From Tubulanus polymorphus (lineage: Eukaryota > Animalia > Nemertea), in assembly GCF_964204645.1 (NCBI RefSeq), contig NC_134033.1:9308655-9372654 (forward strand): 64,000 nucleotides of DNA, written 5' to 3'. This document shows, piece by piece, positions 5,675-60,841 of the stretch. The first letter of the stretch is position 1. Each line of letters begins with the position of its first letter. The notes beneath the pieces are model-generated. The model was not told where the DNA came from, searched no databases, and saw only the letters and a program-made list of their open reading frames with translations. Made by a program: the position numbers and the translations under genes.

Positions 5675-5763
5675 GTAATTAGACAGCGTATTCTATCTTT
5701 ATCTATGGTCTTATTTATTTCTCATTTTTTGTATTCAATATTGTTAAATCGATTCCATTCCAG

Positions 5764-39500: not shown

Positions 39501-42500
39501 CCATCAATGGTTGAAAAAATTAGCAAAACAATATAGAAAAAGGTTTATTTACCTTAGCAATATCTTTCATCATACGCCGACGAGTAACAGACTTATTGGG
39601 CCTATAGCACATTGAACTTTCATCTACTTTATGGCCTGTATCCGTTCTATCGTTTCTACTGTAAGCTGCAATAATCCTAGATACAACGTCTGTGATTGTG
39701 CTTGTCTCACTCTAAAATCAATTTGTTTACCAACAATAGGTTAAGTGTGTAATCAAATATCGAAACGGGATTGGTAGAAAATGGCGACGAGAATCTTCAT
39801 GACATTGTAAAATTAAACCCTGGATCCCAGGTTGAATTAATCCCCCACCTGGAAGAACTGCGCTTAGAATCGGATTTGACCACCTCAGGAACTGGGGCAT
39901 CAGGTAACACCAAACTCCAAATTGCAGATGGGTTCAAATGAAATAAAAAAAGTGGCTTTAGGGTTATGTTAGACCCGAATTAAAGCCCAAAATATAAATA
40001 AACCAACACGTGTGAAACTGGTAAAAATGTAATTGAACTGGATCCATAGCCAACATATACCGAAACCTGCAGATTAGGATCAAGGGTAAAAACTACATCA
40101 TCTGGAACTGGATCCAGGTTAAAATTAAACCCACAACTTTAAAACTGATATTCAAATATCCGACCTATAACCTATGTCAGATTTCACCCAGTAGTAGAAT
40201 TGGTTCAGGAATGATTAATACTTACACATGTGATAAACCGGTCAATCTGACAAGTTTTGTCACAAACGTCAATCTTCATCGGTGATCCAATAACGGCCAT
40301 GTTAGCCCCTGATAAAGTATCTAGGTTTCCAGTTAAAATTCTCTCTAGATCAACATTGAACCCGAAAACCAGCCATTTGTGCACATGTGAAAGATACGTA
40401 GCTTGCTTAGCCTGGATAAAATAGTCACAGTTATTACCGACAAAGAAACTTAGTAATCACAAAATTAGTAATCATCATTCTCGCTGATTTCAATCGTCCG
40501 GGCATCATCTGTGACTTCAATTCAGACGCGTCAAGAATGAATTCATGAAAAATGAACGTTTGTCAACAAACGAATGAAAGTTTCTAGGCAGCAGACCTAC
40601 ATGTGTTATTAAATTATTTCTAATCATCTAAGCCAGGCGTTTTGATTGCCAGAATGCAAAGAACTCAGATTACGCACATGGAATTTGCAAAACTATGACA
40701 TTCAGTACGATAAACTCTTTAATTGGTACTCACGGCTTTGATCAGACGTTCCAAACGGTCTTCGTTTAAACAGGTTATGAATAGTTTCGTAGGGTCGACA
40801 TGGCGGCTGTGTTTATTGACGGATGCGAATGTCGGCTCCTCGCTATCAATTACTTTTATTGTTGAGATTATTGTTGGTTTATGCGACAAATGAGTTACTA
40901 ACATCTCTATGAAATTCGTATCTAGAATAAAAATAAACAAGATAAACAAACAATTCGAATAGACTGAATCAAACCATTTTTTATCCATTTTACACTTATT
41001 GATGCTTTGCCAAAAACCCTTCAGTAATTAGGAAATGGCGTTTTCATACCAGAGGTCGAGAGGTCGAGACACCTCTCATCACCACAAGTAATTTTTTTTC
41101 CTTATAAATGGGGGATAGAAAAGCATTCTTAGCAACAATAAATAACAAAATAAAACCGGCAAAAAAACAATTTGAAATAAAAAAGTTAGTTGATGTTACA
41201 AAAGAAATTGAACATAAATTATTGAAATTAGAAAAGGTTAAAACTAAATATAGAGATTAAATATCAGCTAATTTAAGCTACTGCAATGTTAGTACATCAC
41301 GAGAATTTAAAGTATTTTTACCTGATAAATGGGTTTCATTGAGTACAGAGGAATTAAAAGATTTAGAAGGATTTAAAATAATCTATCATGGAAAAAATGA
41401 AGATGGTCATCATGATTTAGAAATTGTTGATTAAATTTTTAAAAAATAAATAAATTAAAACAATGAATATCTAGAATCCGAAATGACTTATCTGGACAAT
41501 TTAATTGCTCCGCATAGATAGACAAAAGTAGTGAGATGGTGCCGTATGACACCCACATGGTGATATTCAATTAATTTTTAATTTTTTTGCTTTTTTTCTA
41601 AAATATTAATCCATTTTTTTATTATCAATTTTGGAATTTCAGAAGTATTTTCATTTTTGATAGCAGTTGTTTCAGAATTATCAATATCATAAATTTTATT
41701 TGATTTTTCATACCAACTACATCCAATCAAAATGAATATAATTACAAATCCAGTTATAAAATATAAATATTTATCAAATATTCTATTATTAGAAGTAGCA
41801 GAAATAACAATATTTTCACCATTTTCATAAACATCTTTATTATCTATTTTTTCTTTTTTAGCTTTTTTATATTCTTGTGATTTAATTCCTAATATCCGAG
41901 ACTGTTCAATTTGTTTCGGACTTCTCAGGTTTTTCTTCACAGTTAATTCCTTCACTTCTTCCACTTCGCTCATTTATTGTAGAAAAATTTTTACTTTCAA
42001 TATTCGAAAATGTTATAACTCCAGTTGATAATAATGTCATAAATCCACCTAATTGAAATGATAAATATCCAATCCATTTATTTAATTCAGTCATAACTAA
42101 ATAATCATTTTTTAAATCAGCATATAATCTATTTTCATCTTGAATTGGCAGCATATAATTACATAATTTACTATAACCTTTAACTACATTTTCTGATATC
42201 GCGTCATTAATTCTAGCTGTTCTCGCGGTTTCATGAATCTTAAATAATTTAATAATTTCATCTGATTTCATTGTAATTCATTATAAGTTAAATTTTTACC
42301 AATAAAACTTTTACATTTTCCAGATGCTATTAATATTTCTAATTGTTGTTTACAATAAAGATAATATTCATAATTATTATATGTTGTAACATTATTTAAA
42401 GCACCATCATCAGGAGTTAATTTTGTTTCTGTTATTCCTAAATCATCTAAAGTTTTTTCAATTGGAACATCACCATTTTTAGATTTTATTTTCTTTTCAC

Positions 42501-45500
42501 CTCCCATTTATATAACAAAAAAATTAGTTGTGATGTTGCAACTAGAATTTAACTGAATGTAACTAAAAATCAACTAGATTAACAAACTAGTTGAATTATT
42601 ATTGTTTTTATTTATTTCTTGTTAAATCTAGTTGATTTTTATTCCAACTACCAATAACTAGAATTCAACTAGAGTTTTACTTGATAATTATCCATTCATT
42701 GAATTTATCTGGCCATCCAACCCATTTTACTAAAGAATATTTTTTCTTCTAACAGTTTTTGCTTTTAATACTTTTTCAATTGTATATTCTTGTTCTAGAT
42801 TTTCAGTAGTTAAACTCAATTCTTCTTCATAAAAATACCAATCAACTTCTTCACCATCTAAATCTTCTAATTTATAGACATATGGTTTTGTTATTATTAC
42901 CTTCTTTATTTTATATATTTCTCTCGTAAAATTTCGATCGTATCCCTTGTCAAATATCTTTTTATACTTAGAAATTCTAACATTTTGACCAACTTTAAAT
43001 TTAGGTTCACCAAAATCATCTACAAGAAATGCTCCATATAAATTATTCCAAACAATTTCAGCATTTTCACGTTTTCTAGCACCAATAGGTTTCATTCCAA
43101 TAGAAGAATGATAAGAATTATTATATCCTTCTTTCAATTTTGGTTAAACATCAATCCATTTAAAAGTATTATTTGCTGTAAAATATTTCCACATTCTTGT
43201 TCTTAATGTTCTATTAAATCGTTCAACAACTGCTGCTTTTTTATCCGATTTTGTTGAAAAATATTTAATATTATGATTACCTAAGAGTTCATGAACTAGT
43301 GAATTATCAAATTCTTTTCCATCATCAAATTGTATTTTTTCTGGTTTAAGTTTATCATCCGAAAGAAATTTTCTTAAAACATTTGATGTTTGTACAGCAT
43401 CTTTTCTATAAAGTGGGAAGCTCCATACATAACGACTAAAAATATCAATTATATTCAATAACCACCAATAATCATCATTATCTTTCTTAACATTTTTCAT
43501 ATCAATTAATTCTCCTTGCCACTGTTGATCTACATAACTTACCATAGTTTTACGAGTTTTATATTTTCTAACAATTTTTTTATGTGTTGTATATGTTGGC
43601 TGTTCTAACATAAATTCATTTATATCTTTTTATTTAACTAAATTTTGTGGGATTATCTTATATAATTTATCTTGTTTTACTTGACGCCATATATTTTTGG
43701 TAGAAGAATAAGCAACCGAACTCTCAGGGTTGTAATATAAATTTCTTAAATATTGTTCTTTAGTTTTAGGAGTTTTTTTACCACCCATTTATATATCGTT
43801 AATTTTAACTTTATATTTCTAATATTGAATACTATCTAATTGTGAATTTACAATATTCAATTGTGCGTCAGATGTAATATAAATGTGCATTTTGAAATTT
43901 AAGCTTCCTTTTTTCTTTTTCATGAATAATTGTATTTTACTTTAGTATTTTGTAGTTTTTTCCCAGAACCATGTAGTGAATTATCCTCTGTTGTTCTAAA
44001 ATCTAACCATAATGCATATTTATTGCCGGTATGATAATCAATTTGATTAATATTACAATTTTCAAATGATTTTACCTTTTCATTCATAAAATGTTTTCTA
44101 ATGTCTGGCCATTGATCTATCATTCTCATTCCTTGACAAAATATTTTATTTGCTATTCCTTCGATAGTTATTTCTACTTTTGTTATTTCCGGATTATAAT
44201 AATTATCTACCTTTATTGCGCCATTAGGATATGTTGCAATGGTAAAAAATATTATCTAATTATTTTCATTAGTTACTGTATTATATTCTAAACATATATT
44301 CGATAATTTATATCCCATATCTTTAACAACGCTAGATAATACAATTTCATTTACAGGAGCAAATGTTATTTCGAATATAACATCTTCTTGAATTGCATAT
44401 TTATATAAAGGTGCATTATTATTTATCAATTCAAAGTCTAATGGAATTTTATATTTGCTTCCATAAATCTTTTTTATCTAATTATCTGCGGCACGAGTTA
44501 CTATTGCGTCATTAGCTCCTGATCTTAATTTATTATGGTTTTCCGATTGAATGCCTTAAAATATCATATTATTTCTATTTTTTTTAGTTAACCATAAATC
44601 GTTGTAATGCACAAATAAATTATAATCATCTAATGAGAAAACTGTTTCTGGACCAATCTTTATAGTTAATTTTTTAATCAAATATCTCCCAACATTATCG
44701 ACAACATAATTATTATCATGACCAGTTACTTTTATATCGGCTGATAGATAAATACTATTTGGAACATAGAAGGTATTTTGTGTTAATCGAGGAATTCTAA
44801 CATATAAAGGTTTCATCGGGATTAATATTTGAAGGGTTATGAGTAATTATATGATGTGATATTTCTGCTTTAATAGCATTAGATATTCTAGAAATCTTAG
44901 AAGGACTTATATAACTCCCACTCATTTATTTAACAAAAAAATTAATTATTTATTTTTGATTATGTTTATTTGATATTTTTTGATATCATATTCAAAAATA
45001 ATAGCACTTACAACTGTAATTAAAAATAAAATAATATGTTCAGCAGCAAAGTTAAGAATATTCCCAGCAGATTTCAATATAAAACCAACATCTGATGCAA
45101 TAACTCCGGGTAATGCTGCAGCAGATTTTTTAGATAGTTCCCATAAATATTTTGCTAATTTCTTTAAACCATCCTTAACTTTATCTTGTATAGAACTATT
45201 ATCATTCGGGGGTTTATCCGGTTTATTGGGAGTAGGAGTAGATTTCAGTGAATTTGATATAACTAAACCAATTGTTGTGAATACCATAGTTACAGCTGTT
45301 AGAATTGAAAGAATTTTTATACCTTCTAATTTAAATAATAATTTTATTCTATCTTTTAATGATATTTTAGAATCTGGTTTTATCAACAAATCTTTAAAAA
45401 CATCTTTTAATCTTTTGAAATTATTACCAAATTCTTTTAATAATATATCTTTTTCACCTTTCTGTACTTCTAAATTATCTTTTAAATTATCAATTTCTTC

Positions 45501-48500
45501 TTCTAAACGTAATTCTTTTTGCCTATATTCTATTTCATCAATTACTTGATGATCTAAATCAGACTTTAATTGTTCTATTTCTTCATTTGCATTAGTTAAT
45601 TCTTTTTCCAAATACATAATTTTTTTATCTCTTATACTTTTATCATGCGCAATTTTTTTAGCTGATATTTGTACGCCTTTAATTTCTCTACGCGCTTGTT
45701 CAGGAAATGTTTCTAAATCTTCATCAGTTAAATCAAATAATCCTTTTTCTAGTAAAGATTGCATTTGATTCATTCCAGTTTCAGCACCGGGTGTATCTAA
45801 AGCACTATTCGCCTCTTCTTCAAGTGAATTAGTTGTATCTAACATGCTATCAATTTGTTTTTCTATTTTTTAATTGTAGTTTACTTGAACCAATATAAAT
45901 TTTTTGAATATCTCTTCTCGATGTTTCGGGTGTTGAAGATCTTAATTTATCTAATCGACCTGCATACTCTTCCATTTCTGGATCAAAATCAGTAGGATTT
46001 GGATTTGGATTTTTAAATGGTGAATATTTGTTTATATCAATATTAGGAATTGGTTCTTTTTCATTTATTCTATCGATTGCATTCCATATAATTCTGAGAA
46101 GTTCTCTACCGCCTTTTGAACGTTCAATTGTAGATCTTGCTCGCATTTCTGGACGGAACAGATTTTCTTGTCCCATTTTAGAAAATTGAATTGATACTGT
46201 TTCGTTATTTAATTCATCTTTATAAAACCATGAATCATTTTTAAATTCTAAATTATTCATGAAAAATGGATCATCTTTTCTAATTTGTTCTGTAATATCT
46301 TCTGGTTCAATGTTATCTGTTATATTTTTTGGTAATAATCCTTCAATAACTGTATTTGTTACAATATGTTTCATGTAAAATAATTCTTTTTTCAATGCAG
46401 GGTTTTCTGTTCTTTCTAATTCTTTAAATAATTTTTTTCTTTCTGGTATAGTTTTAATTATTATCTCATCGCGGGTTTTTTAAATAATCTATTAATTTTT
46501 CCCTTTTTTCAGTATTATCTTTAAATTTATCATAATCATATAATATAAGCCCACTAGAATCATCTTCACCTAAATTAGTATTATATGCTGATTCATCATC
46601 ATTATCAATATTAGTTTCTACATCATTATAATCATCATCAATATATCCTTCATTATTATTTTCCATTTCTCCCATTTCATAATCTTCTACACCTTCTAAT
46701 TCCATTTACATAATAGAAAAATTGAAATTTAAAATATAATATTCCTCCTATAACAATTCCTATACAAGCTAATTTAGCATTTTCATGGGATTTATTATCA
46801 TCATTTAGTTTGATTATTTCATGTTGAATATTATCAGTTTTAATATTTTCTGTAGTATTGTAACCTTTTATTTTAGAATCATTATCCAATTTAATATTAT
46901 TAGTTTTAGTTTCTGTTGATTGAATATGTTTTTTATTTTTTTCACCTTCCATTAATTTTGGAGCAGTAATAATCTTTTTATTTATATCATTTAATCCAAA
47001 TGAATTATTTATTGTTGCAGTTTTAATTAGATTATTATAACCAATTATATTTCCCATCTTTAATACTAAATCATTAGAAATGATTAATAGATAAGGGCCT
47101 ATACAATAATTTAATCTAATATGTGATTTATCTAAATAATTTTGATATCTTACAAGGTTTTCTGGAATCGATCTATTTTTATCATTATGAATAGAATCTT
47201 CAAATAATACTTTGAATTGTTTCTGCGCATCAAATGAAGTACTATCATTTCCAACTATTGGTGATCTTGTTTCAACTTGTGCACCTAAAATACAAATTAA
47301 ATAAGTTCTAATTGATTGATTTTATTCTTTGTATACCAGGTTTTGTAAAACCTTCACCATTATCTATAATAAAATTATTCCAACCATCATCAATATCGAT
47401 TTTATAATTATGATAAGCTCCAATTCTATGCATATAATCAATTCATTTTATTTCATACTCTTCACCAATACCTTGCTATTTACCATGCGCTCTAAAATCG
47501 GAATTAATATTTATATTAAATTCATTAGATATTTTATAAAACTTAGATAGATTAATATTATTATCCAATTCTTTAAAATATTTCGATCCAGGTAAAGGAC
47601 ATTCTAATTCATTTAATATAATTCTAATTTGAAAGTATGCATGAAATCTAAATATTGTATGAATGAATTTTAAATCTGAATAAGACAAATTGTTATATAA
47701 ATTGTTCAAGTGATCATTCCAACTTATACCACACCCTGTTGTTGCACAATAAACAGCAAAATTTAATTGATTCTGCCAGTATTTCATATTAGATTTTATT
47801 TTATTATATATATTATATTCATCTCGAGTAAAAGTAACTTCATATGTATTAAATATGTTTTCCATTCTAGAAATGAAAAACTTTGTTTCAGTAACATAAA
47901 TTTCTAAATTAATTAATGAAGGTAAAACTACATTTTGATATGTTATAATACTATTAAAATCTATAGGTGGAATTAAATATCGATATGATTTATTATATTG
48001 GAAAGCTTTTGGAAACCCAATTTATATAATTAAAAAATTAATAATTTATTAATTCTTTTAATAATTTATCTTGTTCTTCAACTGTTATATGGCCATTTAA
48101 ACTTATTATATAATCTAGTGTATTCTTCAATTTATTAATTTCTTTTATATTAGTTTTAATTTTTTCTTTAATACTTTTTATATTCAATTTTGAACTTATA
48201 CCAGTTAAAACACTTGAACTTCAACCTAGCACACCAATTGATATAGCTAAAGGTGTTAATGGTGAGAATATTGCTAGAAATGTTATTACAGAACTAATTG
48301 TAACTGAACCACTAATAATAAGATAATATATAATTTTACTTTTTAAATATTTTTTCTTTTTTATCTTTCACTTTCAAATTCTAATATTTGTTTTTCTAAA
48401 TATATTTTTAATTTAGTTTTATTTATATCATGAGGAATAATATCAAAATTATCAACGTTATCATCCATTTATTTAACAAAAAAATTACTAATTAGTAAAT

Positions 48501-51500
48501 TTATATAAAACAAATATAACAATAACTGTTCCACCTAAAATCCAAATTATTTCATATTTCTGTTGTTCTTTACTTGGGGTATAATAATCTAATAATTTAG
48601 GTTTGTATAACTGTAATTTTTCTTTATTGGTTACCGCGTTATATAAACTCATTGCATCATCAACTGATTGAAAATTAATGTGAAATCTTCTGATCATATA
48701 ATTCTTTGTTAATATAATCCATATAGTTTTGCCTCTTTTCTCTGTATTCTTCTGCTGCTTTATTGTATTTCTCTAATGCTAAGTTATGTCTTTTTTGTTC
48801 TTCTAATGAACTATTTTTATCTATATGCCTAAATAAATAACTACCACCAGTAAATGCTAAAGCGTTAACAATTGCTGTTCCTATAATAGTTAGAATTACA
48901 GAAGCCATTTATTTAGCAAAAAAATTATGTAATTATATAGGAGGAATATATTTTTGTTTTATCCAAATAATCAATAGTTAAATTAGATAAAGTTACTGCT
49001 AATGTTAATTTTAAGATATCATTTATATCAAATCTATCAACATTAACACTTCCCATTTTAAATACTTTTTTTTAATACCATTGAATAACCAATAGTTCCA
49101 ACTGATAGTTATGCTCCATTATATAATCCAGTTATTATCCACTTATTATCACTCATTTATTTATCAAAAAAATTACTATCTTCAAAATATTTAGTTATCT
49201 TAGTGATGATTAATTCAACATTTATTTCATTACTAGTTTCATTTGTATATATTTCAATTATTATTTTTTTGATATCATCGATGATAAAATCTTCATCTAA
49301 TTCGTAAAATCTTAAAGTTTCTCTAATTAAATAAGTAATCTTTTCTACATTTAATGTTTCTTTATTTATTGTTGTTTCATACTCAAATGTTGTTTCATTA
49401 GAAAATGCAATATTTTTGATATGTGTAATTACATCATTAATGTTAAATTTCATTTCTTTCTCACGTTTAAAATCAAACCCAAAACATATACTCGGTCCAA
49501 CAGTTATATTGATTGATATAGTGAAAAAATTACTCTTTACATCTTATAACTAATTCATAAATTACAGGAAAGTTATTCAAATCAATTAAGTATCCATTGT
49601 GATTTCTTACTTCTAATCTGAAATTATTGAAATGTGGTATACAAGGTTTAAAATCACATTCGGCTAAATTATATTTTATTTGCGCTCCAAATTGTTTAAC
49701 ATTCTTCAATGGTAAAATATTTAATATACTAGAATTACATGTTGTATCTTTAGTTGCTTCAAATGTTTTTGTAGGATCAATTAAATTGCAATAAATATAA
49801 AAATGTGTAAAAGGCATTATATTTGAATTACTGTCTACGTTTCCTGTAACAGTTTGTGGTTTAATTCCTAACAGTTTAGCAAAAGGTTTTCTTACCATAA
49901 ATGCATGTTTGCTTTCATCATCTAACTTTATTTTAATTTTATCAGAACTATCACTTTTTATAAATCTAATTGAAAATTTATCTTCACTTCCAAGTTTTAA
50001 TCGTGCTCTTGGGCTAATGTTTCTAAATTATATAACCCTGGTTTTAAAAATAGATGAAACCATTTATTTCTATTTCTAATATGAATTAAAAAGACTCTAT
50101 GTTCAAGAGTTTTATCCGATATATTATAAGAAGAATTACATAAACTTATATTAACTAATTTCAAATCAACACAATTCTTAAATTCTCTACCTAATTGTAT
50201 TAGTAAATTATGTGATTTATAATTTGAAAGTTTTCTAGAATCAACAAATATTCTATATTCTTTTAATTCTACCATTTATTTATAACATAAAAAAATTACC
50301 GCTCATCACTAAAAATTAATTTTAATAAAATTTTTCCTAAATAAATGGATGAGAAGATAGGATGTGAAATTTGTGGTGAACTTATCAGAAAAAGTAATAT
50401 GGCGCGACATATGAAAAAACATGATGAACATTATAAAACCCCTGAAATAAACTGCCCAAAATGTAATAAATTATTCTCAAGAAATTATCTTAAAAAACAT
50501 TTAGAGAAGTGTAAAATTAATGGCGCAACGGCTAATGTTGATAGTAATGAAAGTAATAGTAATTCTGTTGAAGTTGAACCTGAAATTATTTGGAAAAGAC
50601 CTTTCTTATTCTATGATAAGGATAATATAAAAGATCATTTCTGTGAGCCTTGTCGAATGAAATTTAGTCCTGAAAATATAGAAGCTTGGGAGAATCATCA
50701 ATTTCGTAAAGCACATATAGACAAAATTTCTAATAAATTTGAAACTGAATTCAATGAAAGAAAAAATAAAATATTAGAAAAAATGAAATATGAGAAAACG
50801 TTACAAGATAATGAAGAAACAGTTTAAAAGTTAGAAAAACAATATAATGAATTAACAAGAACAACATATTATTGTAAATATTGTAAATTGATTATTACAA
50901 CAAGTAATTCTAATGTACATAATAGAACAATAAAACATAAAGAAAACGTAAGAAAATAAATACCAAGAGCTTAACGAAGATCTATTACTAAGAAATGATA
51001 GACAAAAATGTCCAAAATGTATTTATGAGTACTTAAGACAAGAAGGTTCTGTGATATTTTGTAATGTATGTGGATGGGAAAAAATTCATGGGGTGATTAA
51101 AAAACTAAGAGATTTTCTCATAGAACCAAAATTAAAATATCTAGATGAAATATTTAATATATTTTCTATGGTAGATCATACACCAGAATATAATCAATGG
51201 CTTGAAAAAATGAAAATAATAGAAAATAAAAATGGTGAAATAACTAAAAAAGATATAATAAAAACAATTATTACATCAACATTTAACACACAAGAAAAGA
51301 AAATGTATTTATATTTATTATTTAACGATTATTATAAAAAACCTAAATTAACAGAAACAGATATGGAAAATATAAAAGAAACATTCAAACAAATATTAAG
51401 ATATTATGTGGATAATAGAATAACAGATTCAATTAATTATGAATTCTTTTTAAATAAGATTGTAAATTATTTAAACATCGATATCATAATTCCATTCGAT

Positions 51501-54500
51501 GAATTAACAAACAAACAGAAACAAAGAGAGCGAGATGAAATGTGGAATAATATAGAACTTTATTTAAAAGAGAAAAATGAAATGGAAGAACCTAAACAAA
51601 TTATACAAGAACAATTAAATGAAAAAGAAGAAACCAATAGTGATTTCGAGTTTGATGATATTGATCCATTTTAATAACCATAAGGTAATGTTTTTGTACC
51701 ATCATCTGAAATATGTCTTTTATCATCAAATGGATTAAAACTAGTTTTTTCAACTTCATTAATGTACTCGTGATCTCGTGATCTTCTGATCTTAAAAAAA
51801 TCATTTTGTGTTTCATTACAATTGAGTTATATAAACACTTTATATAATCTTGAAATTCTATATGTTTATCAACCACATGTTTTGTTATTCCTTTTAACTG
51901 TTTAGCTTCATAATCTTTTGTTCTGTAACTATACATTTTACTTGTGATCCCAACAAATTCAATCATTTCATCACCCCCTAATTCATCTTTAAATTTACCA
52001 GGAATCTTTTATTATCATTGCTAAATAGTTCATTATCTTTGGGATAATTGCTAAAATCAAAATGATGTTTTAATGTTTTTAAGTCTTTTGTTATGTCATT
52101 TGTCTTGATTTTTAGTATGTAGGCGTCAGTATTGAGGCAAATTAATGGAAATCCACAGTTAAATGTACCATCTTTAGTTGATAAATCATAATGTTGGGTT
52201 ACATATTTCAAATGGGTTACATATTTCAAATAAATCTTTAACTTCTTCAGTTAAATCTTTTTCTGTGTGGCTTGAATTAAAGCAATTTGGTTTAGATTTA
52301 ATCAATCCAATATTCATATTTAAGCCTAATGAACTGCATAATATATTTAACCCTGATATAGCAACTTTTCCTTTTTGAGCTAAAGATATTGCTGGAGAAC
52401 TCGTAAATTTTTTAGCTTTTCTTTAGTTGAAGTATTACTTTTCACTATTGCATGAATATAGAATTCATCATTATATTTAATTGCAAAATCTTTAGGGTTA
52501 TTTATAAGTATTCTATAAACTGCCGATGATTTCAAATAATCCACGATTCTAAATGTTTTATTTGGATAAACTTCTTCACAGTATTTCTTAATTCTTTCTA
52601 ATAATTTCAAATCTTGATTGCATAAATACCAACAACATTTATTACCACTAACATAATTATACACACCTGCTGAACCATCACCCATGAAAAATCCTTTGAT
52701 AAAATATTCTTTTTTTTTTAATGTTTCGGGTTCTATATTATAAATATTATTAATTATTTCATCAAATGACATATGATTCATTCTTTGGAAAAATCTTTTA
52801 TGTAATAATTCATCTCCAATTTTTATATCAGTTGGTTTTATTTCATCAACATTTTGTTTAATTAAACTATAGTCTTCAGTAACATCTACAAACCCTAATT
52901 TAGTTCTAACTCTATAGATTTTCTTATTTGTTTTATGCCTAATAATATTCTTTAATTTTTTCCATCCATTTCTTGTCCAAACATCCATTAAACCATTTAT
53001 TTGTATTAATTCTTTTTCACCATATGAAATATAACATTCATTTTGTTTTGGAATTATTTCTGAAATTCTTCTGATTAATATTTTGTCATTACATTTTAAT
53101 AATATTAGGGTGTCAGCTGTTACAGAATCAAAATATAATATTTCAATATGCTTTTCCCCAAAAAGTGGTTGTAAAACATTATAATAAAATTCATACATCA
53201 ATAATTTTGATACTTCTAAAACAGTTGAACCAATGAATATAGGTTTATTAAATTTCATTGACGTTCTTTTTAATTTAACTGCTGTTAAATAATCTTCAAA
53301 TCTTTTATTTCCCAAATGTCTAGGACTTGATTGTAAATATCTTAATCTTTCAGAATTATTTACTAATTCAATATCCTTTCTATTTCTAATATTTTCACAT
53401 GTTTTACCATAAAAACTATTATTCATTAATTTGAAGAAATCTTTTTCAAAATCTGTTTTAGATATGGTTCTCTGTTGAGTATTGAAATCTATATATTTTT
53501 CTAACCACTTCGATTGATTAAATTCAATATATCTATGTACTTTCTTTAATTTCATTCCTTGTTTTAGATAAAATTTTAACATTCTATAATGAACAATATA
53601 ATTGTATTTATTATTTTGAGTAAGTATTAATTTTTCTGTAAAAACATGATCTTTCGGTTTTATTTTCTTCTGGTATTCACTTAAATAACTATCATCTACA
53701 GTTAAATGTTCTTGGCAATAAGGTAAGTTTCTTGTTATAAACTTTATTTTTTCAGGATATTCTAAATCAACTACAAAGAAATAACCAATTGGTGCTTCAT
53801 CTTTTAAACTCGCAATTGCGCTTTCCCAATCAGTTTTATCATCATTTTCAACTTCTGTTAATATAAAATTTTATTATGGTTGAGGTTGCATCATTGCCCA
53901 ACCATATAAATTATTGGCGTCAATATATAATAATTTATATTCATCATTTGCTTTAAAATATCTATCTCCCATAACACCACTAATTCCACCTCTAATTGAT
54001 TTTTCAAATAATAAAACCATATCTGGTTCTTTTAATAAATCTAATTCTACATTTGTATATTTTAAACCACATTGCCAGGTTAAACCAGGACTTGAATAAC
54101 AATAACAAGGATCAACATTAAAATGATTTAAATTAACTTCTCTAAATTTTTCAAATATGTCAGCCAATATCATAACATCTGATTTTAAATATAAATCAAC
54201 TAATTCACCATGATTTTTCATCTTAAAATGGTTCCAAATATTTAATGTTCTATTAAACACTTCATCTTTCACATACTCCTCTTTTAATTGATCATAAAAT
54301 TGATCTTTTAATAATTCTGTTACATTAAAATCATTGTGTGTTTTATAAAATGAATAAGGAATTGCGCCTTTATATCTCAATAATTTAAAATCTTGGTCAT
54401 TTGGATAATAATATCGAGTTATAACAAAATCATTATCAACTAAACTTTTTGATAAATTATCTAATGAACTTGCTAGAAATCTATAAGAATCTAAAAATCT

Positions 54501-57500
54501 AATGCAACCAAATTGAAATGAAATGTAATTTTCAGATGTTTTAGCTAATAGTTTAAAATCATATTTTCTTACATTTACACCATTCATAGCATTATATTCT
54601 TCTATTTCTTGATTAATTGAACCCAATTTCCTTGATAATTGTTTTATAAATAGATGGGTATCATAACCTGATAAATTATGAAATAATATTGGCACGAAAT
54701 TAACTTTCTTAGCTTGTAAATTGCAATCTTCATGAGCAGCTCCACGATATTTTGAATTTAAATGATTATGATCTCTAACTTTTTTATAAAATGAATAAAA
54801 ACGTTTTTCACAATAACAACAATGAGTTGAGTAATTAAAATCAACTTCATCTTCTTTGTCATAACTATTCTTTTATTTCTGTTTAATAATTTTGCAAAAT
54901 CACTTTCTAATTCAATTATTTTGTTACAAAAATCATCAACTACATTTTCACCTCTAAAAGAAATATATTGACTTTCATATAATTCGGGATGATTTGATTT
55001 TGATGTAAATTCCATAAGCAGCAGCTCTTTGATGAACTTTTTTAATTGTATTTATAAATGGCGGGTCTTGTGTTGTGTCTTCATTTAATTCATTTCCTTT
55101 ATCCATTGATTTTAATAATTGCTTTTTGTTATATATTTCTTTTCTATCTTGATCAGTTAATTCTTTATTCAACGATTCAAAATCCCCATGAATTACAAAT
55201 GGAACAACATTCTTTAATTTATGATTAGTAAATTTCAATTTATTATCTTTTTCTGTTGGCATTATTAATTTACAAAAATCTTTGTTATCACATAATTCTT
55301 TATGCTTTAGTAACGCATTCTCAGTTCTAAATTTAGATAAACATTTTCTACATAGATAAATTTTATGACTGTTAAAATCACTTTCTGTTCTAAAGAATAA
55401 ATCAATTTGTTTTAACCACATATAATGTTCATTTTCATCTTTTTTGTAATATAATAAATCTATAGCATTTTCATCATCATAATATTCTGTTAAATTTAAA
55501 GCTTCCAATGTATAATCTTTAATATTTCACCTTTTGTCTTTGGTAATTGCATTAATTCGAATACATTTATTTTTAAATTATTATTTTTTTCTATTTTGGG
55601 TATCATTTTTATAGTTACTGGATATTGATCAATTTTATATAATGTTTCATATTTCCGGTAATTTGTTATTCTAAAACTATGCGTAATATCTTCTGTTGGG
55701 TGTAAGCAACTAATAATAGACCATAGAAAACATTTATTATCTTCATTTTGAACATTTATTACTGCTTTTGTTGTAAATGGTAATTTAATATAAGATGATG
55801 CTTTAATATACTTTTCTGTTGTAAAGTTTGAATCATTTTTAAACATTGTTTTACTTTTGATGTTTTATTCCTTTTTGTATTATAAACATTTAAATCTAAA
55901 AATATAATTCCATTCAATGTTAAACCAGAACCCTCAAAATATCTTTCTTCAATATGACGTTTAAATTCATTAAATATTTTTTCTAACTTCTATTTTATTG
56001 CGTTTTTGAAATTATTTTTTCAGAGAGTGTTTGAATATTATAATCCATTTTCTCTTCTGACTTTAAAAAACGTACTTTCCCAGAGATACTAATTTTTGGA
56101 TATTCAACATCTGTTATCAAATCTAGTATTTTTTCTATTATTTCATTAAATTTACTATAATCTTCTATTGTTGTACCTTTAAAAAATCTAAATATAATAG
56201 CTGCAGGACCAATTTTACTACGTAATGTTTCTAATATTTCAATTGTATCTTTTATTTCTAGTGAATCAATATAATTTCTAACATTTTCCATTTAAGGTTT
56301 ATTTGAAATGGATTTAGTTTTTGAAGTTGGTTTTTTTACTTTTTGAGGTTTATCATCGAAATAATCTTTTCCTAAAACATTATTACTCAAATTTTGATGG
56401 TGTTTTTGTGATTCGAGATGTCTATTATAATTCCTTTTTACTATAAATTCATTACAAATTTCACATTTTATTTCATCCACATTCATATTTCCTAATCGTT
56501 CTTTTCTTTCATTTGAATTTTCTGAAGTTTCAAAATCTATAACATTTTTTATATGATTTGAAGATTTTTTATGTCGTGACTTTTGGGATTTATCGATGTA
56601 TTTTTTACAAATTAATATTGAATTACAAATATTGAAACAATTACTAATAGATATGGTAATAAATTAGTTATTCACTTAATGAAGGATTTAAAGGAAATAA
56701 ATATAAATTCGGAACATATTTACCAGATAGATTTCATAGATTATCTACTGAAGATCTAGAAGAAGTGTGTTCTGGTGATTTCCATTCTATACACAAAGGT
56801 AAGAATGAAAAAGGATGTCATGATATAGATTTCGAATAAAAAATACGTAAAATAAATGCAAGATAAATTAAAAGAATATAGATTATTTGTTGATTCAAGT
56901 AGACTTACAAATTATAAATCTCATAATTTATTGATACAACTAGATAGAGAATTTAGAAATTGTGTTGATTTAAAATTAGTAAATATTAGTCTATGTAACT
57001 CATTTTACAATTTATCGGATAAAACTATTGAACAGAGCCTTTTTAATTTTCAATAAAAGTTAAAAAGAAAATGGTATCACCTTTTTCTAAAACCAGGGTT
57101 ATATAACTTAGATACATTGTCTCAAGAAATTGATAGAAAAGCCTGGCACAAATTAGGTAGTGATTCTGGTTTTGGCGTTAGATTTTTAAAAAGTGATAGT
57201 TCCAATAAAATAAAGATTATGGTGAAAAACATCAATTTTCAGTTAAAAAACCTATAGCTAAACTGTTAGGAATTACACCAGATAAATTTTATTCAAATAT
57301 TGATGCTTCACCAAACCTTATACCTTACTCACATTTCCACATTTATTGTAATTTAATTGATCCCACAAAAAAATTCGAAGCAATTGAAGATACAACTTGT
57401 AATTCTAGTATATTAAATATTTTACCATCGAAGAACGTTAAAGAATTTGGAATGCAAATAAATTATAATTTAACAAAATGTGATTTTAAGCCTTGTATTT

Positions 57501-59754
57501 CACAATTTAGTAATTTTAAGTTAGAAATTAGAAATCATAATGGATACTTAATTGATTTGAATAACTTTCCTGTGATATATGAATTAGTTGTAAGATGTAA
57601 AGAATAATTAATAATTATTTCTTTATAATAATAAATGTGAATATAACAGTAGGACCGAGTATATGTTTTGGGTTTGATTTTAAACATGGTAAAGAAATGG
57701 GAATTAAACTAAATGATGTAATTACTGATATTAAAAGTATATCATTAAATAATGCATCAATGATTAATAAAGAAAATTATAATAAAGAAAAAGAAATTGA
57801 TTTAATTAAAACATCTTTAGAATATTATGAATTAAATGAAGATGGAATTATCGATGATATCAAAAATGTATTATCTAGAATATATGATTATCATAAAAGT
57901 AGTAATGAAATAAATGTTGAAATAATTATAAATAAGATAACTAAATATTTTGTAGACATAAATGAGTGATAATAAGTGGATAATAAAAGGTTTATATAAT
58001 GGAGCATTACTATCAGTGGGACCTGTTGGTTATACAATGTTATTGAAGAAAGTATTTAAAATAAAACGAACATATTCGTTTTATTGCCACGTTAAAACGA
58101 AAAATAGCGCGATAGAACGAAAAATTATCGCAATTAAATGATTTTTTTATTCGTTTTACATTGTGATAAAACGAAAGATCAACAAATTCCGTTTTTCTCC
58201 ATTTTAACGCAGCAATAAATCGAGAATAAGTCGTTTCATCGCGTGTTAAAACAAGTTTTTTTTCGTTAAATCGCGCAATAAAATAACTTTTTCTCGTTTA
58301 ACGTGGTAATTTTCGTTTTATCGCGCAATTTTTCGTTTTTAACGCCGCAATAAAACGAGGGAGTTCGTTTTATCACTTGATAAGGCTGGTGAACTTCGTT
58401 TTAATGCGCGATGATACGACTTTTAGGCGTCTGTAAAAAAAAATTGCACCATTTGTGATTTTTTTTACATGGCCTAATTAGCCACCATAGGTTAGGGTAA
58501 GAAAGTGCCTAAACACATTTTTAAAATTGTGCAGCCCCTTTCGCTACGGGGCATTTTTATAGAACTCAGTAAAATTTCCGTGAGTTAGGCGAGGTTTTAC
58601 CGTTGGTACTATTTCGTAGGTCAAATTATGGAATATTGATAATATTGATTGATAAATTAAATGGGATTTATTGAAACTAAATTTATCAATCAATATTGTT
58701 ACTATGAATCGCAGATCCAGCCTACCGCTATTTCCGCTTGAGTGGTACTCAGAATTCCCCCCACGACATATTAACTATAGTCAATATATGCCTATATTTG
58801 ACTTCACACTCGAGCATGTATCATGATTCTCTCTCCGATACATGATACACGATTCTCTCATGATTTTCTCTCTTGTCGCTTATGTGGAACCAACAGTGAA
58901 TCGGTGCAACACAGGAACCCGATGCTTACGGCATGTGGAATTGGTTTTCGTTTTTTTAAGTTGATGAGAGAATCAAACATTTTTAAAATTTCTTTAGGGT
59001 GGTGCTCCAAACGACACCTCGCCCCGCCAGGGCATCGAGCCATCGGCCAGCTATTTGGGGGACTGTAATTTGAGCAGTATTCAGATTTGACCCTAGGATC
59101 CGCCACGACTGAAAACTATTTGAACACGTTACTTCAAATTCTGAGGCTTACAGAGCTGAAATTCAAAACAAGAACCGAACATGATTTAAAATTCTGTATC
59201 CATTAGCTTACTCATTTAAAAACTTACCATATGTTTCATCGTAATAGATGCGCAACGAAGACGACCGCTGACTTTTGACAACGTCTGAAATAATATCGAT
59301 TATTCCTCGCCAGGTAGGGCCGTAGTGCAGATGTTGCTCAGCGATAAAACAAGGCATACTACCGATTGATACCATTGGCATGTCATATTCATCAAATCTA
59401 ACCGCGAGTTGGTCAATCTTCAGACAATCATCGCTGATCACTATTGCAGCTGCGAGATTTGCTTTCATCGCCTCGCAAACTAAATGATATCAAATGTTTT
59501 ATGTTTCACATATTCGATACAAAAAAAAACGTATTTCTCATGATGAAATTTCTAGAATTTTTGATGTAATATGACAAATGTTTTGTTTCACTTACCATAT
59601 TTCGTACTTATCGCAGAAATATTTGATATATCGATTTGAAAATCACCGTTCACAGAAATTCCGCGTTCTATCGACCAGTCATTCACAACGCTTAACGTTT
59701 GATTTATATCTGGTTTCGTGGCAACGGCACCCCCGGATCGATCCATGTAGAACC
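24540..59754 (-). CDS. Gene C: ionotropic glutamate receptor-like / IR with amino-terminal domain (multi-exon, first exon unresolved)
   Basis: Exons 59596-59754, 59228-59479, 40734-40921, 40226-40411, 39553-39711, 38498-38692, 31274-31380, 30960-31053, 30671-30866, 28081-28212, 27469-27686, 25478-25731, 24540-24879 have GT-AG sites and compatible phases. Motifs GFCFDIL, WNGMIG, GPFTVTSIREEVIDF, MFRPF..VW, WWFFAIIIMAMYTADLAAYLT, MQESGMMNRWKRIWW, and M4 LDSVGGAF. Confidence 0.8.
28849..29025. repeat. MITE fragment with AAGGTTCT/AGAACC repeats
   Basis: ACACTCTTAGAACAAAGGGTTC start and internal palindromic GGTTCT/AGAACC units. One end only. Confidence 0.5.
32577..33583 (+). mobile_element. Family 2 element, copy 2 (nested in a MITE)
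   Basis: Collinear similarity with 19030-20166 over its whole length. Confidence 0.75.
33578..33788. ncRNA. Inverted pair of Penelope-like terminal repeats, each with a minimal hammerhead ribozyme motif
   Basis: Plus strand CTGACGA (33678), stem TGATCT/AGATC, GAAAC (33704), GTC. Mirror copy on the minus strand at 33630-33660. A degenerate single copy lies at ~26375-26490. Confidence 0.6.
34620..34990. repeat. Minisatellite, ~74-bp unit, ~5 copies
   Basis: GCGATCCAATGTGTTTGGATAGATTTTG recurs at ~34711, 34786, 34860, 34933. Confidence 0.8.
36148..36254. mobile_element. Short palindromic MITE
   Basis: GATCCAGTTCCACAG...CTGTGGAACTGGGTC TIR with a flanking AAG 3-bp duplication (PIF/Harbinger-like). 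Confidence 0.6.
36660..37016. repeat. Diverged inverted pair of tRNA/SINE-like arms
   Basis: 36660-36762 and 36918-37016 are reverse complements, each with a B-box (GGTTCGAGTCC / GGTTCGAATCC). Confidence 0.55.
41108..41260 (+). CDS. Small basic viral ORF (50 aa, MGDRKAFLATINNK...)
   Basis: Preceded by the element-wide motif TTTTTTTTCCTTATAAATG. Below the ORF-track length cutoff. Confidence 0.35.
   Translation: MGDRKAFLATINNKIKPAKKQFEIKKLVDVTKEIEHKLLKLEKVKTKYRD
41578..41973 (-). CDS. Viral small protein with one transmembrane helix
   Basis: 131-aa ORF with hydrophobic YLYFITGFVIIFILIGCSW. Start preceded by TTTTTCTACAATAAATG. Confidence 0.55.
   Translation of the reverse strand: MSEVEEVKELTVKKNLRSPKQIEQSRILGIKSQEYKKAKKEKIDNKDVYENGENIVISATSNNRIFDKYLYFITGFVIIFILIGCSWYEKSNKIYDIDNSETTAIKNENTSEIPKLIIKKWINILEKKQKN
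41906..42507 (-). pseudogene. Uncharacterised viral protein, split by a frameshift
   Basis: ORFs 42268-42507 and 41906-42271 overlap by 4 nt and read as one protein with a C-terminal hydrophobic segment. Motif-bearing start at 42507. Confidence 0.55.
42677..43788 (-). pseudogene. Polinton-type retroviral-like (rve/DDE) integrase with C-terminal chromodomain
   Basis: LYYNP, WQGELIDM, IIDIFSRYVW, IQFDDGKEF, KAAVVERFNRTL, YNNSYHSSIGMKP, then chromo-like YTIEKVLK...LVKWVGWPDKFNEWI. Contains an internal stop and frameshifts; the first catalytic Asp position reads Glu. Confidence 0.92.
43819..44925 (-). pseudogene. Putative major capsid protein (double jelly-roll), disrupted
   Basis: Fragments ITHNPSNI, LYVRIPRL...NVGRYLIKKLTIKIG...YNDLW, YKIPLDFEL, KYALWLDFRTTEDNSLHGSG, DAQLNI. 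The length, beta-rich pattern and context fit the MCP of invertebrate Polinton-like elements. The fold is not verified. Confidence 0.65.
44946..46705 (-). pseudogene. Large viral protein: acidic N-terminus, coiled coil, C-terminal hydrophobic/amphipathic helices (fragmented)
   Basis: Consecutive ORFs 46466-46705, 45850-46395 and 44946-45845 share one motif-bearing start at 46705. Hydrophobic segments ILSILTAVTMVFTTIGLVI and IILFLITVVSAII. Confidence 0.6.
46677..48021 (-). pseudogene. Uncharacterised viral protein with C-terminal hydrophobic tail (fragmented)
   Basis: Fragments YWQNQLNFAVYCATTGCGISW, IFRFHAYFQIRIILNELECPLP, CILGAQVETRSPIVG, MGNIIGYNN...ACIGIVIGGILYF. A degraded start motif (TATAAATTGGG) lies near 48020. 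Confidence 0.55.
48035..48468 (-). pseudogene. Small two-TM viral protein (disrupted)
   Basis: ATG at 48468 after TAATTTTTTTGTTAAATAA. Hydrophobic IIYYLIISGSVTISSVITFLAIFSPLTPLAISIGVLG, with in-frame stops. Confidence 0.5.
48488..48908 (-). pseudogene. Viral protein with N-terminal hydrophobic helix, coiled coil and C-terminal TM (frameshifted)
   Basis: ORFs 48675-48908 (MASVILTIIGTAIVNALAFTGGSYLF...EQKRHNLALE) and 48488-48697 overlap. Confidence 0.6.
48925..49156 (-). pseudogene. Small hydrophobic viral protein (MSDNKWIITGLYNGA...)
   Basis: Motif-bearing ATG at 49156 and an internal stop. A partial paralog lies at 57962-58045 (+). Confidence 0.5.
49157..49525 (-). CDS. Uncharacterised viral protein, copy 1
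   Basis: ORF 49157-49453 extends upstream (NITVGPSICFGFDFK). Paralog at 57637-57969. Confidence 0.55.
   Translation of the reverse strand, partial: FTISINITVGPSICFGFDFKREKEMKFNINDVITHIKNIAFSNETTFEYETTINKETLNVEKITYLIRETLRFYELDEDFIIDDIKKIIIEIYTNETSNEINVELIITKITKYFEDSNFFDK
49530..50275 (-). pseudogene. Putative minor capsid (penton) protein, copy 1
   Basis: IFVDS...LVNISLCNS.YNI...KPGLYNLETL...FAKLLG...FYIYCNLI...ILNILP...FRLEVRNHNGYLIDLNNFPVIYELVIR is the Polinton penton pattern. Split into ORFs 49997-50275 and 49530-49898. Confidence 0.7.
50345..50827 (+). CDS. Viral C2H2 zinc-finger protein
   Basis: CEICGELIRKSNMARHMKKH, CPKCNKLFSRNYLKKHLEKC, CEPC...HQFRKAH. TAAATG start. Confidence 0.7.
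   Translation: MDEKIGCEICGELIRKSNMARHMKKHDEHYKTPEINCPKCNKLFSRNYLKKHLEKCKINGATANVDSNESNSNSVEVEPEIIWKRPFLFYDKDNIKDHFCEPCRMKFSPENIEAWENHQFRKAHIDKISNKFETEFNERKNKILEKMKYEKTLQDNEETV
50952..51674 (+). CDS. Poxvirus A2 / VLTF3-like late transcription factor homolog (start codon apparently lost)
   Basis: The open frame extends upstream of ORF 51051 to give a CPKC-x13-CNVCG zinc ribbon. C-terminal KLTETDMENIKETFKQIL...SINYEFFLNKI...DEMWNNI matches the A2/VLTF3 signature as I recall it (INYSFFLDKI...W). Confidence 0.7.
   Translation, partial: ENKYQELNEDLLLRNDRQKCPKCIYEYLRQEGSVIFCNVCGWEKIHGVIKKLRDFLIEPKLKYLDEIFNIFSMVDHTPEYNQWLEKMKIIENKNGEITKKDIIKTIITSTFNTQEKKMYLYLLFNDYYKKPKLTETDMENIKETFKQILRYYVDNRITDSINYEFFLNKIVNYLNIDIIIPFDELTNKQKQRERDEMWNNIELYLKEKNEMEEPKQIIQEQLNEKEETNSDFEFDDIDPF
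51671..56600 (-). pseudogene. Protein-primed family B DNA polymerase (pPolB) with N-terminal zinc fingers, RDHxH endonuclease VII-like module and an intein; multiply disrupted
   Basis: INVQNEDNKCFLWSI, IHGDFES, KVRDHNH...YRGAAHEDCNL, FHNLSGYD, FLDSYRFL, YLKSDVMILADIFE, IRGGIS, YIDANNLYGWAM (motif A), KLMNNSFYGK (motif B), YFD/TD (motif C split by the intein), SKMYSY, KGI, FDDKR...TLPYGY stop. Confidence 0.95.
52131..53126 (-). mobile_element. Intein with LAGLIDADG homing endonuclease remnant in pPolB motif C
   Basis: 996-nt insertion between YFD and TDAY. Block A SVTADTLILL, block B DVTEDYSL, LAGLIDADG IKGFFMGDGS, block F YDLSTKDGTFNCG, C-terminal Asn followed by +1 Thr. Confidence 0.92.
56856..57607 (+). 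pseudogene. Putative minor capsid (penton) protein, copy 2
   Basis: Inverted paralog of 49530-50275 (LKEYRLFVDS...HNLLIQLDREFRNCVDLKLVNISLCNS...NFPVIYELVVRCKE), with frameshifts. Confidence 0.7.
57637..58045 (+). pseudogene. Paralogs of 49157-49525 and of the 5' part of 48925-49156, truncated
   Basis: NITVGPSICFGFDFK...SNEINVEIIINKITKYF, then MSDNKWIIKGLYNGALLSVG. Homology stops abruptly at ~58042. Confidence 0.7.
58046..58489. mobile_element. Right half of the same TA-MITE family, fused to the viral element
   Basis: AAAACG/CGTTTT repeats and right TIR CATGGCCTAATTAGCCACCATA. No left TIR. Confidence 0.7.
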
Positions 59755-59884
59755 CTGAAAGCGTAATATCATTCTGAAAGCGTAATATCATTCTTTCAAT
59801 GGCTAGTGTTTTAAATTGTTTTTATCAATTGGATCCATGATTTGGAAATAATCTTGAAATTCCGAGCTCTCAATGACGAATAAT

Positions 59885-60278
59885 TATGGTGGCTGATTCG
59901 GGACATGTAAAAATTTTTTTTTTCGTCCTCCACGAAAACGCGCAAAAACAAATCTGAACGCGCAAAAACAAATATTACCGCGCAAAAATAAACTTTTAAC
60001 CCGCAAAACCAAAAAAATCCGTTTTTGTGCACTAAAAACGGGCGCAAAAACGAATATTACCGCGCAAAAACGGATTATTCTGTTTTTGCGCGCGTTAAAA
60101 AAACAAATATTACCGCACAAAAACAAACTTTTAACGCGCAAAAACAAAATAATCCGTTTTTGCGCGTTAAAAGTTTGTTTTTGTGCGGTAATATTTGTTT
60201 TTGCGCGGTCAGATTTGTTTTTGCGCGTTTTCGTGGAGGACAAAAAATTTTTTTACATGTCCCGATTCAGCCACCATA
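59885..60278. mobile_element. Near-perfect palindromic MITE sharing the TGGTGGCTGA TIR
   Basis: TATGGTGGCTGATTCGGGACATGTAAAA...TTTTACATGTCCCGATTCAGCCACCATA, with long inverted arms. Confidence 0.85.
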
Positions 60279-60841
60279 AATAAGTGTGCCCCGTTCATTG
60301 GATTCTACATGGATGAAACCGACGGGAGTTTTTTATTTGCTATATGTCAATACGACATATGGCAATTTAAATCGAAAGCTCTAGCGGAAACATCTGTTTC
60401 ATATCTTGACAGGTCGAAATGAGCGATGGCACTTTGTCGAGGCACGTTGTAGAAACTAAACATTAGTGAGAGTGATTGATGCATAAAAACTGTCAAAAGC
60501 ACCCTCAAAAACCGGAAAAACAATGGGTGATAATTAACATTTCATCACAAATAAAATCAAACACACGGTATCGCAACAATTTATTAAGTAGCACCTTGCT
60601 TTAAAAAATTCATGTCGAGAAGAGGTGAAAACCTCGAATTCGATTTATTTTAATTGCACCCGGTTCAGTAATAACTTAACTCCATAATCCCTCGCCGATA
60701 GATCATCATGAGCTCCGAAATCCGAGATGACACGAGTGCAGCATGCATTATTTCTTCGTTCGTACTGACAAATGAAAACCCGGCAGCTGCATTGTTCGGG
60801 CGATCTTTTTTCTAATAAGGGAAACTGTGTATGCATTCTTC

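Follow-up and report, generated by a model that had tools for sequence, protein, structure and literature searches.

A decayed LAGLIDADG intein in the catalytic motif of a Polinton polymerase: likely homing between Polintons and probable descent from giant-virus PolB

The window analysed here (i.e., the whole stretch of 64,000 nucleotides of Tubulanus polymorphus DNA) contains a decayed LAGLIDADG intein in the catalytic motif of a Polinton polymerase, and taken as a whole the evidence makes it likely that this intein spread by homing between Polintons, with probable descent from a giant-virus PolB. The first-pass annotation had described a true intein with a homing endonuclease, at the known YGD/TDS site, in the protein-primed PolB (pPolB) of a Polinton-like element within an animal genome, and that description is borne out. 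It places a known type of intein in a new class of host and a new kingdom.

The 996-nt insert (52131..53126, minus strand) was found to lie exactly between the Y-F-D and the T-D of pPolB motif C, at the coordinates first proposed for it. In the minus-strand frame, IEILYFD/SVTADTLILL is read at position 53126 and GTFNCGFPLICLN/TDAY at position 52131 (with the slash marking the junction), and the motifs quoted earlier (i.e., VWTRNGW, IRHKTNKKIYRV, DVTED, GFFMGDGS, NQDL, KSSAVY, QKGK, and SLG) were all recovered within the insert. Intein block names and class 1 splicing chemistry are used here in their textbook sense, and the features of the split polymerase are as follows, with P0001 being an intact intein-bearing relative.

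52131..53126, minus strand: intein coding sequence of class 1 type (Ser1...Asn, Thr+1), pseudogenised (from frame, alignment, TIGR01445, and intein-free reads)
52383..53126, minus strand: open N-terminal part of the intein with blocks A and B, the first LAGLIDADG motif, and block D (62% identity to the P0001 intein over 238 aa)
52869..52889, minus strand: block B (VDVTEDY), with Tyr instead of the catalytic His of other pPolB inteins (motif comparison)
52671..52694, minus strand: first LAGLIDADG motif (GFFMGDGS; from the motif)
52216..52416, minus strand: second half of the endonuclease domain, out of frame, after a deletion of ~26 codons (60% identity to residues 263-329 of the P0001 intein; 237-262 unmatched)
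52131..52190, minus strand: blocks F and G (YDL...GTFNCGFPLICLN) with the FN[CST]G[FTSY][PA]L signature (alignment and signature scan)
53127..56663, minus strand: pPolB N-extein (PF03175) with stops and frameshifts (69-72% identity to the intein-free P0133-P0135)
51674..52130, minus strand: pPolB C-extein from Thr+1, frameshifted (alignment)

The window copy is a pseudogene of its intein family. Its 996 nt form no open frame and, when aligned to the intact P0001 intein, fall into three pieces (53126-52416, 52416-52216 in another frame, and 52190-52131), with two frameshifts, a deletion at ~52416 of ~26 residues that include the second LAGLIDADG motif, and a short tandem duplication near 52190-52216. 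The Hint blocks A, B, F, and G, the LAGLIDADG motif, and the Thr at +1 that had been reported are indeed present, but block B carries a Tyr for His and the second LAGLIDADG motif is gone, so that the window copy lacks an open frame with all catalytic motifs. Stops and frameshifts are also found in the window's polymerase, integrase, and capsid-like genes.

That the insert is a real intein can nevertheless be taken as practically certain. The TIGR01445 profile scored 27.0 bits against a cut-off of 24.5 bits over the 248 codons of the open N-terminal part, and 1651 cluster representatives match this part at E<=0.001, which together rule out a chance ORF. A predicted model of the P0001 intein (pLDDT 83, pTM 0.86, from a 21-row alignment) showed a Hint fold with a nested two-motif LAGLIDADG domain, and its Foldseek matches, all of them homing-endonuclease inteins of archaea or yeast, were the TliVMA intein (E=2e-16, TM 0.68) as well as PI-PkoII, PI-PfuI, and PI-SceI. 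A PDB sequence search with the window intein piece returned no match below E=0.4, and one with the intact P0001 intein returned PI-PkoII at 1e-7. Removal of the insert leaves a contiguous YFDTD, as in intein-free relatives, which keep an uninterrupted motif C. Two further candidates were rejected: a spliceosomal intron, since the insert is protein-coding, intein-like, and missing from DNA reads, and a Hint domain of the hedgehog or BIL type, since a LAGLIDADG domain is present and motif C is split.

Among the 120 pPolB relatives listed (out of 2892 matches and 3350 candidates), motif C is uninterrupted in 109, 3 carry an intein of the window type, and 8 end before the site; the nearest listed relatives of the window polymerase (P0133-P0135, 69-72% identity) are intein-free. 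The best matches to the window intein itself reside in two full-length pPolBs, i.e., P0001 (62%) and P0002 (49%), and P0001, P0002, and P0180 each combine PF03175 with intact intein domains. Further pPolB carriers are P0180, L017, P0450-P0454, P0483, P0488, and P0584, and with identities of 48-62% such Polinton pPolB inteins are the closest relatives of the window intein. P0180 represents a cluster of 136 members, of which those listed lie on contigs between 57 kb and 1 Mb in length; among 120 listed short matches to the P0180 intein, the extein is that of a pPolB in 44, of giant-virus type in 26, and of neither kind in 50. In a 77-row tree (built from 115 dereplicated full-length inteins by taking the 45 with the highest scores and every fifth of the rest, with pPolB, split-PolB, and topoisomerase rows added and mini-inteins and fragments left out), 11 pPolB inteins formed one clade (100/100) with a stem length of 0.44, in which the window intein was sister to that of P0001 (100/97).

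Blocks A, B, C, E, F, and G are kept by pattern in six complete pPolB inteins; the P0450 intein keeps every block pattern except block B, and P0488 and P0584 gave no match to the endonuclease motif patterns. Complete relatives keep Ser/Cys1, the block-B TxxH, the block-F Asp, the terminal Asn, and a Ser, Thr, or Cys at +1, with a variable penultimate His. A scan with the pPolB-specific block-B motif pattern yielded 1 match in JGI metagenomes (L017), 0 in IMG/VR, and 0 in GTDB. Related-locus searches yielded one weak match with the window intein and nothing with those of P0453, P0001, and P0180.

An intein family across Polintons that appears to be still mobile had been overlooked in the first-pass annotation. 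Separate intein and extein trees, which that annotation had recommended, placed the inteins in one clade and left their host polymerases scattered: on a 34-row extein tree drawn from 118 usable rows, the 5 intein-bearing exteins required five changes, and their monophyly was rejected (p=1.8e-35). The P0002 extein could not be matched significantly to P0133 (lowest E=0.40), though the P0002 intein is 49% identical to that of the window; the pPolB types of the window and of P0002 may correspond to the two classes of adintovirus PolB. Within the first pPolB class, the intein tree largely agrees with the extein tree.

A search for intein-plus and intein-minus pPolB alleles, likewise suggested at first pass, revealed that both coexist in the P0180 cluster, where the 15 listed of the 136 members comprise 7 intein-plus copies, 6 intein-minus copies, and 2 that do not reach the site. 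Plus and minus copies are 98-100% identical over the 10-80 residues upstream of the site and 58-60% identical within 10 residues of it, and over the first 10 residues downstream, plus copies in the P0180 family share 95% identity with the intein-plus members of a ~74%-identical family (with flank windows being ungapped and one control row, P0152, mis-parsed). In another pair (P0570 vs. P0573) the intein is the sole difference, the exteins being 99.5% and 100% identical. Co-conversion of short flanks is an established footprint of homing, and the foreign flanks close to the site in otherwise near-identical copies are, at the protein level, the footprint expected of it. Homing of the intein among Polintons is therefore highly probable as judged from sequence. 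A patchy distribution could also arise through repeated precise loss; such loss, however, accounts for the patchiness yet not for the foreign flanks.

The closest inteins outside Polintons are found at the identical position in giant-virus PolBs, with 38-45% identity to those of Imitervirales type, so that the best matches are not confined to cellular or phage inteins. By best extein match, 106 of 120 and 130 of 150 listed matches are giant-virus-type PolBs, 2 and 5 are phage-type, and 9 and 1 are topoisomerases, with these labels resting on the references P0005 and P0009, the latter's intein matching the giant-virus MAG contig L014. The D/S...N/TD arrangement occurs in 99 of the 132 proteins scanned. 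The C-terminal signature FN[CST]G[FTSY][PA]L was found in 23 of 75 full-length rows (9 pPolB, 11 giant-virus-type, and 3 phage), a number inflated by the fact that 8 of the 14 non-pPolB rows were retrieved by the signature pattern itself. In the maximum likelihood tree, with topoisomerase II inteins of the same broad family as outgroup, the pPolB clade was sister to these 14 giant-virus and phage signature rows, with a support of <80%. Four of six GVMAG names were found in PMC8575486, all of them Imitervirales (three IM_01, i.e., Mesomimiviridae, and one IM_07). The viral fold matches were, from the top, one unnamed entry, a phycodnavirus PolB fragment, and the PolBs of Pandoravirus, Marseillevirus, and Megavirus.

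A giant-virus origin of the Polinton intein is thus suggested as the probable one. The likeness to the Mimivirus PolB intein that had been proposed at first pass holds as far as giant-virus PolB kinship goes; the closest inteins, however, are those of other Polintons, and the best named matches, in a comparison made without Mimivirus, belong to Imitervirales IM_01 and IM_07. Similarly, the proposed direction of homing (i.e., out of an NCLDV PolB) is favoured, with the alternative retaining an AU p of 0.13, but the immediate donor was likely a different one: since other Polinton inteins are closest (48-62%), the window element most likely received its intein from another Polinton, with the jump from a giant virus further back. 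A direct Mimivirus donor was rejected in view of these closer Polinton inteins.

According to an alternative that we consider unlikely, the intein is old in Polintons, i.e., it entered them once (or passed from Polintons to giant viruses) and was then inherited vertically, with many precise losses and little current homing. Compatible with such a history are a tree in which the pPolB inteins branch outside every intein of RNA-primed PolBs, which was not rejected (dlnL 27, p-AU 0.13; p=0.46 against a weaker quick tree), the rough congruence of intein and extein trees within one pPolB class and the long stem of the pPolB clade (0.44). Nevertheless, it leaves unexplained why foreign flanks are limited to ~10 residues around the site in 98-100% identical copies and why a 49%-identical intein sits in an unalignable second pPolB class; moreover, 109 of the 120 listed relatives are empty, and NCLDV inteins are far more diverse than pPolB inteins.

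A second alternative, which appears improbable, makes a T4-like phage PolB, instead of a giant virus, the source of the Polinton intein. The intein and its C-terminal signature also occur in three PolBs of phage type (phrog_262, with E as low as 1e-163), and P0004 is the fourth-best match among those listed. However, these phage inteins nest within the Imitervirales group (96/91), a pPolB clade sister to phage received p=0.03 (without re-optimising), and 50,697 phage records contained one weak match to the intein (31%), with no window-type intein found in plasmids or in GTDB prokaryote genomes.

The polymerase is part of an island of 23-25% GC (~41.0-58.1 kb) inside DNA of 36-42% GC, and the element and its surroundings comprise the following features.

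41040..58060, no strand assigned: AT-rich Polinton-like element, decayed, with approximate ends (from GC and genes; no matching terminal repeats)
42733..43629, minus strand: rve (retroviral-type) integrase with one stop inside (PF00665, E=8e-10)
43923..44846, minus strand: probable double-jelly-roll major capsid gene, in fragments (PF16903, E=0.0012, below cut-off)
24543..31085, minus strand: host glutamate-receptor-like gene, exons for the ligand-binding and channel part (domain matches)
59211..59489, minus strand: exon that probably belongs upstream in the glutamate-receptor-like gene (weak match to the paralogous exon 22097-22405, E=1e-4; no Pfam match)

The protein-primed PolB of the element is recognized by PF03175 (E=4e-13). 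A packaging ATPase and a cysteine protease gave neither a Pfam match nor a convincing motif in six frames of the element, and neither terminal repeats nor a target duplication were found between its two ends; the element was therefore classed as a Polinton-like remnant rather than a complete member, and the window copy may be truncated. The ORF at 47479-48021 had no usable match in the ESM Atlas.

The flanks of the element contain PAN, fibronectin type II, and intron-split glutamate-receptor exons, identifying the host as an animal, in agreement with the animal context first proposed. In the PDB, the receptor exons matched vertebrate GluA chains, and they resemble what we take to be IR25a/IR8a-type genes. 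Since exon 59211-59489 weakly matches the paralogous exon 22097-22405, and the GTAAG donor that ends each of them is identically placed, the element probably resides in an intron of the glutamate-receptor gene. It is very likely that the element is chromosomal in the animal, and its integration would have occurred in the germline.

Raw reads were examined in the whole-genome run X6 (from a related animal sample, labelled organism A), of which 9439 reads out of a total of 1934 Mb aligned to the locus. In 45 of these reads, with 28 start places, position 52121 is joined to 53127 with 9 other letters in between, so that a net 996 nt are absent. Median depth was 225 over the intein and 339 over the exteins, and read identities ranged from >99% down to <90%. 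X6 may hold ~35-350 intein copies if the genome measures 0.3-3 Gb, to which free viral DNA may contribute. Contigs of organism A have loose ends at the position of the window's intein deletion, indicating that this lesion is not family-wide. An intact intein of the window type probably exists in an animal chromosome. None of the runs listed as containing the insert was an RNA run, and the 11 short contigs of the marine-metagenome run X5 were left out of the analysis.

It could still be argued that the element is a free virus or protist element mis-joined in the assembly, with no intein in an animal genome at all. This would fit the lack of junction-spanning reads, terminal repeats, and a target duplication, the fact that no listed run contains half of the insert's words (highest share 0.37), and the location of several close relatives on short metagenome contigs. 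We give it little credence, as the stops and frameshifts in the polymerase, integrase, and capsid genes fit neutral chromosomal decay, probable exons of a single host gene flank the element, and a run labelled as one organism (X6) has the element at high depth and with a wide spread of identities, both with and without the intein.

Finally, although the Pfam Intein_splicing and LAGLIDADG_3 profiles score weakly on the insert (both below cut-off) and the penultimate His is absent in the window intein, P0001, P0002, and P0483, the idea that a Hint or nuclease domain without splicing activity was inserted here, as with the HNH/VSR inserts of pPolBs, can be dismissed almost outright, since the insert splits the catalytic motif and, by established PolB chemistry, an unspliced motif-C insert makes a dead enzyme, while intact copies keep all splice residues, many giant-virus relatives likewise end in KN, SN, or LN, and the predicted fold is Hint plus LAGLIDADG.

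In the mechanism we propose, the Hint domain of intact copies would splice itself out via the class 1 route (using Ser1, the block-B His, the terminal Asn, and Thr+1), restoring the YxD-TD metal-binding loop so that the element can still replicate. Because the insertion lies in this loop, an element that lost the intein imprecisely would not survive. Copies free of the intein would be cut by the endonuclease at the motif-C site, whether during co-infection of a cell or between copies in the chromosomes, and an intein-plus copy serving as repair template would pass on the intein together with a few flanking codons. One early jump likely led from an RNA-primed Imitervirales-type PolB to a protein-primed PolB, aided by the common D/TD site; as only the YxD/TD codons were shared at that point, this would have been a rare non-allelic event. 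Movement between Polinton families would have followed, including into the second, barely alignable pPolB class, and the window element would have brought the intein into an animal chromosome, probably into the glutamate-receptor intron, where both element and intein decayed. Somewhat better than even, in our judgement, are the chances that the giant-virus intein acts as a natural gene drive in animal genomes, i.e., that it converts empty Polintons, crosses pPolB classes, and may favour escape through changes in the motif codons. If so, protein splicing would be needed for Polinton replication in animal cells, as a first case in Metazoa.

Inteins have been stated to be absent from metazoan genomes (in the available text of PMC5784728 and PMC8529194), and searches of open-access PMC and bioRxiv yielded no earlier description of an intein in any pPolB or Polinton. 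The intein family contradicts the former statement and fills the latter gap, with the caveat that its carrier is a virus-like element and not a host gene. It also provides sequence evidence that Polintons and giant viruses were once in one cell exchanging DNA, and evidence for recombination between different Polinton families at a single site, which bears on the question of an infectious phase of animal Polintons. Splicing and nuclease domains evidently persist in eukaryotic elements, and the natural plus/minus allele pairs are material for testing homing across non-orthologous targets.

Compared with known systems, the window element resembles Polintons/Mavericks and animal adintoviruses (Starrett 2021, PMC8502044, as far as its text was available) in combining a pPolB, an rve integrase, and a probable capsid gene within a ~17-kb AT-rich element, but the window copy is without terminal repeats, ATPase, and protease. 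The word "intein" is absent from the available text of this study, of PMC10748475, and of the coral polintovirus survey PMC11131425, and no intein in a Polinton or pPolB is reported in the accessible parts of PMC12220804, PMC5718144, PMC4104785, PMC3671162, PMC13768754, PMC2924276, and 10.1101/299784. HNH and VSR nuclease inserts have been described in Polinton pPolB2 (Jeong 2023, PMC10748475; Krupovic 2024, PMC11071308; both in part), and a single sentence in the available text of the latter supposes them to stem from intein invasions; Hint and LAGLIDADG occur 0 times in that of the former. Those inserts likewise place a nuclease domain in a Polinton pPolB, whereas here a complete intein sits in the active-site motif. 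The archaeal inteins TliVMA (7qsu), PI-PkoII (2cw7), and PI-PfuI (1dq3) are alike in their Hint plus LAGLIDADG fold, as predicted here, with an identity of only 12-18%.

Viral inteins are known from four NCLDV families, with DdDP inteins in Phycodna-, Irido-, and Mimiviridae (Green 2018, PMC5784728, available text). The giant-virus PolB motif-C inteins (Mimivirus R322 site III, Ogata 2005, PMC549080; Green 2018; both in part) share with the present family the D/T site, the Ser...Asn/Thr+1 ends, a length of ~350 aa, and LAGLIDADG, but their host is the RNA-primed PolB of an NCLDV, as opposed to the protein-primed PolB of an integrating Polinton with its own intein clade. PMC10710043 and bioRxiv 10.1101/299784 discuss a relaxed specificity of the endonucleases in giant-virus inteins. 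The former (Gallot-Lavallee 2023), whose available text does not contain the words "polinton", "animal", or "metazoa", describes viral-like DNA polymerase inteins on nuclear scaffolds of Klebsormidium, Tetrabaena, and a labyrinthulid, next to inteins of Anaeramoeba. It thereby comes close to the present case in having a virus-borne intein in a eukaryotic nucleus, viruses as carriers, and non-allelic spread; its hosts, however, are algae and protists, not an animal as in the present case, where a multi-copy Polinton acts as carrier.

The surroundings of the intein, both within the decayed Polinton-like element and elsewhere in the window, contained the following further features:

5748-11315, single open frame of 1855 codons, Thr/Asn/Lys-rich, outside the element
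42481, 43762, 44899, 48020, 48458, 48907, 49130 and 50253, common AT-rich motif (families D2, D4 and D5)
49055-50281 and 56850-58062, 1.2-kb inverted duplication, 76% identity between the arms
58061-58373, 59881-60282 and 60851-62708, small MITE-like inverted-repeat elements adjoining the element's right end

The inverted duplication is internal to the element, with its arms flanking the polymerase region and two or three ORFs being doubled as a result. Many of the element's ORFs have the AT-rich motif immediately before their start codon, where it likely serves as a promoter or start signal peculiar to the element. Outside the element, a Pfam search of the 1855-codon frame yielded no match; following PAN and fn2 exons, this frame was interpreted as a mucin-like exon.

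Among empty alleles (i.e., pPolBs with an uninterrupted motif C), one 98%-identical family (P0258-P0265, P0144 and P0155) varied among its members in the catalytic site itself (i.e., YTD|CDS, YFD|TDA or YGD|TDA), and DCD was found in 27 of the 109 empty pPolB relatives listed. Such variation could be a putative escape from the endonuclease.

An intein-bearing pPolB fragment (P0488) was deposited under the bacterial bin of a clam symbiont, where it likely represents host DNA. Moreover, the cluster of P0453 comprised 55 members (including P0610, P0611 and P0613), whose ORFs of 362-365 aa are nearly all intein, with ~11 residues N-terminal and 4-7 residues C-terminal of it. This cluster is possibly an intein-only derivative, or else a decayed Polinton family in many copies.

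The same intein was also present in proteins of ~680 aa (P0532-P0566) that correspond to a giant-virus-type PolB lacking its N-terminal half, probably the product of a split PolB gene. It further occurred in T4-like phage PolBs (P0004, P0323 and P0326), whose nesting among Imitervirales inteins suggests giant-virus-to-phage transfer. Finally, close kin of this intein resided in topoisomerase II proteins (P0062, P0072, P0087, P0089, P0094, P0095 and P0104) at DQD|TDG, a further D|TD target that provides a precedent for non-allelic jumps.
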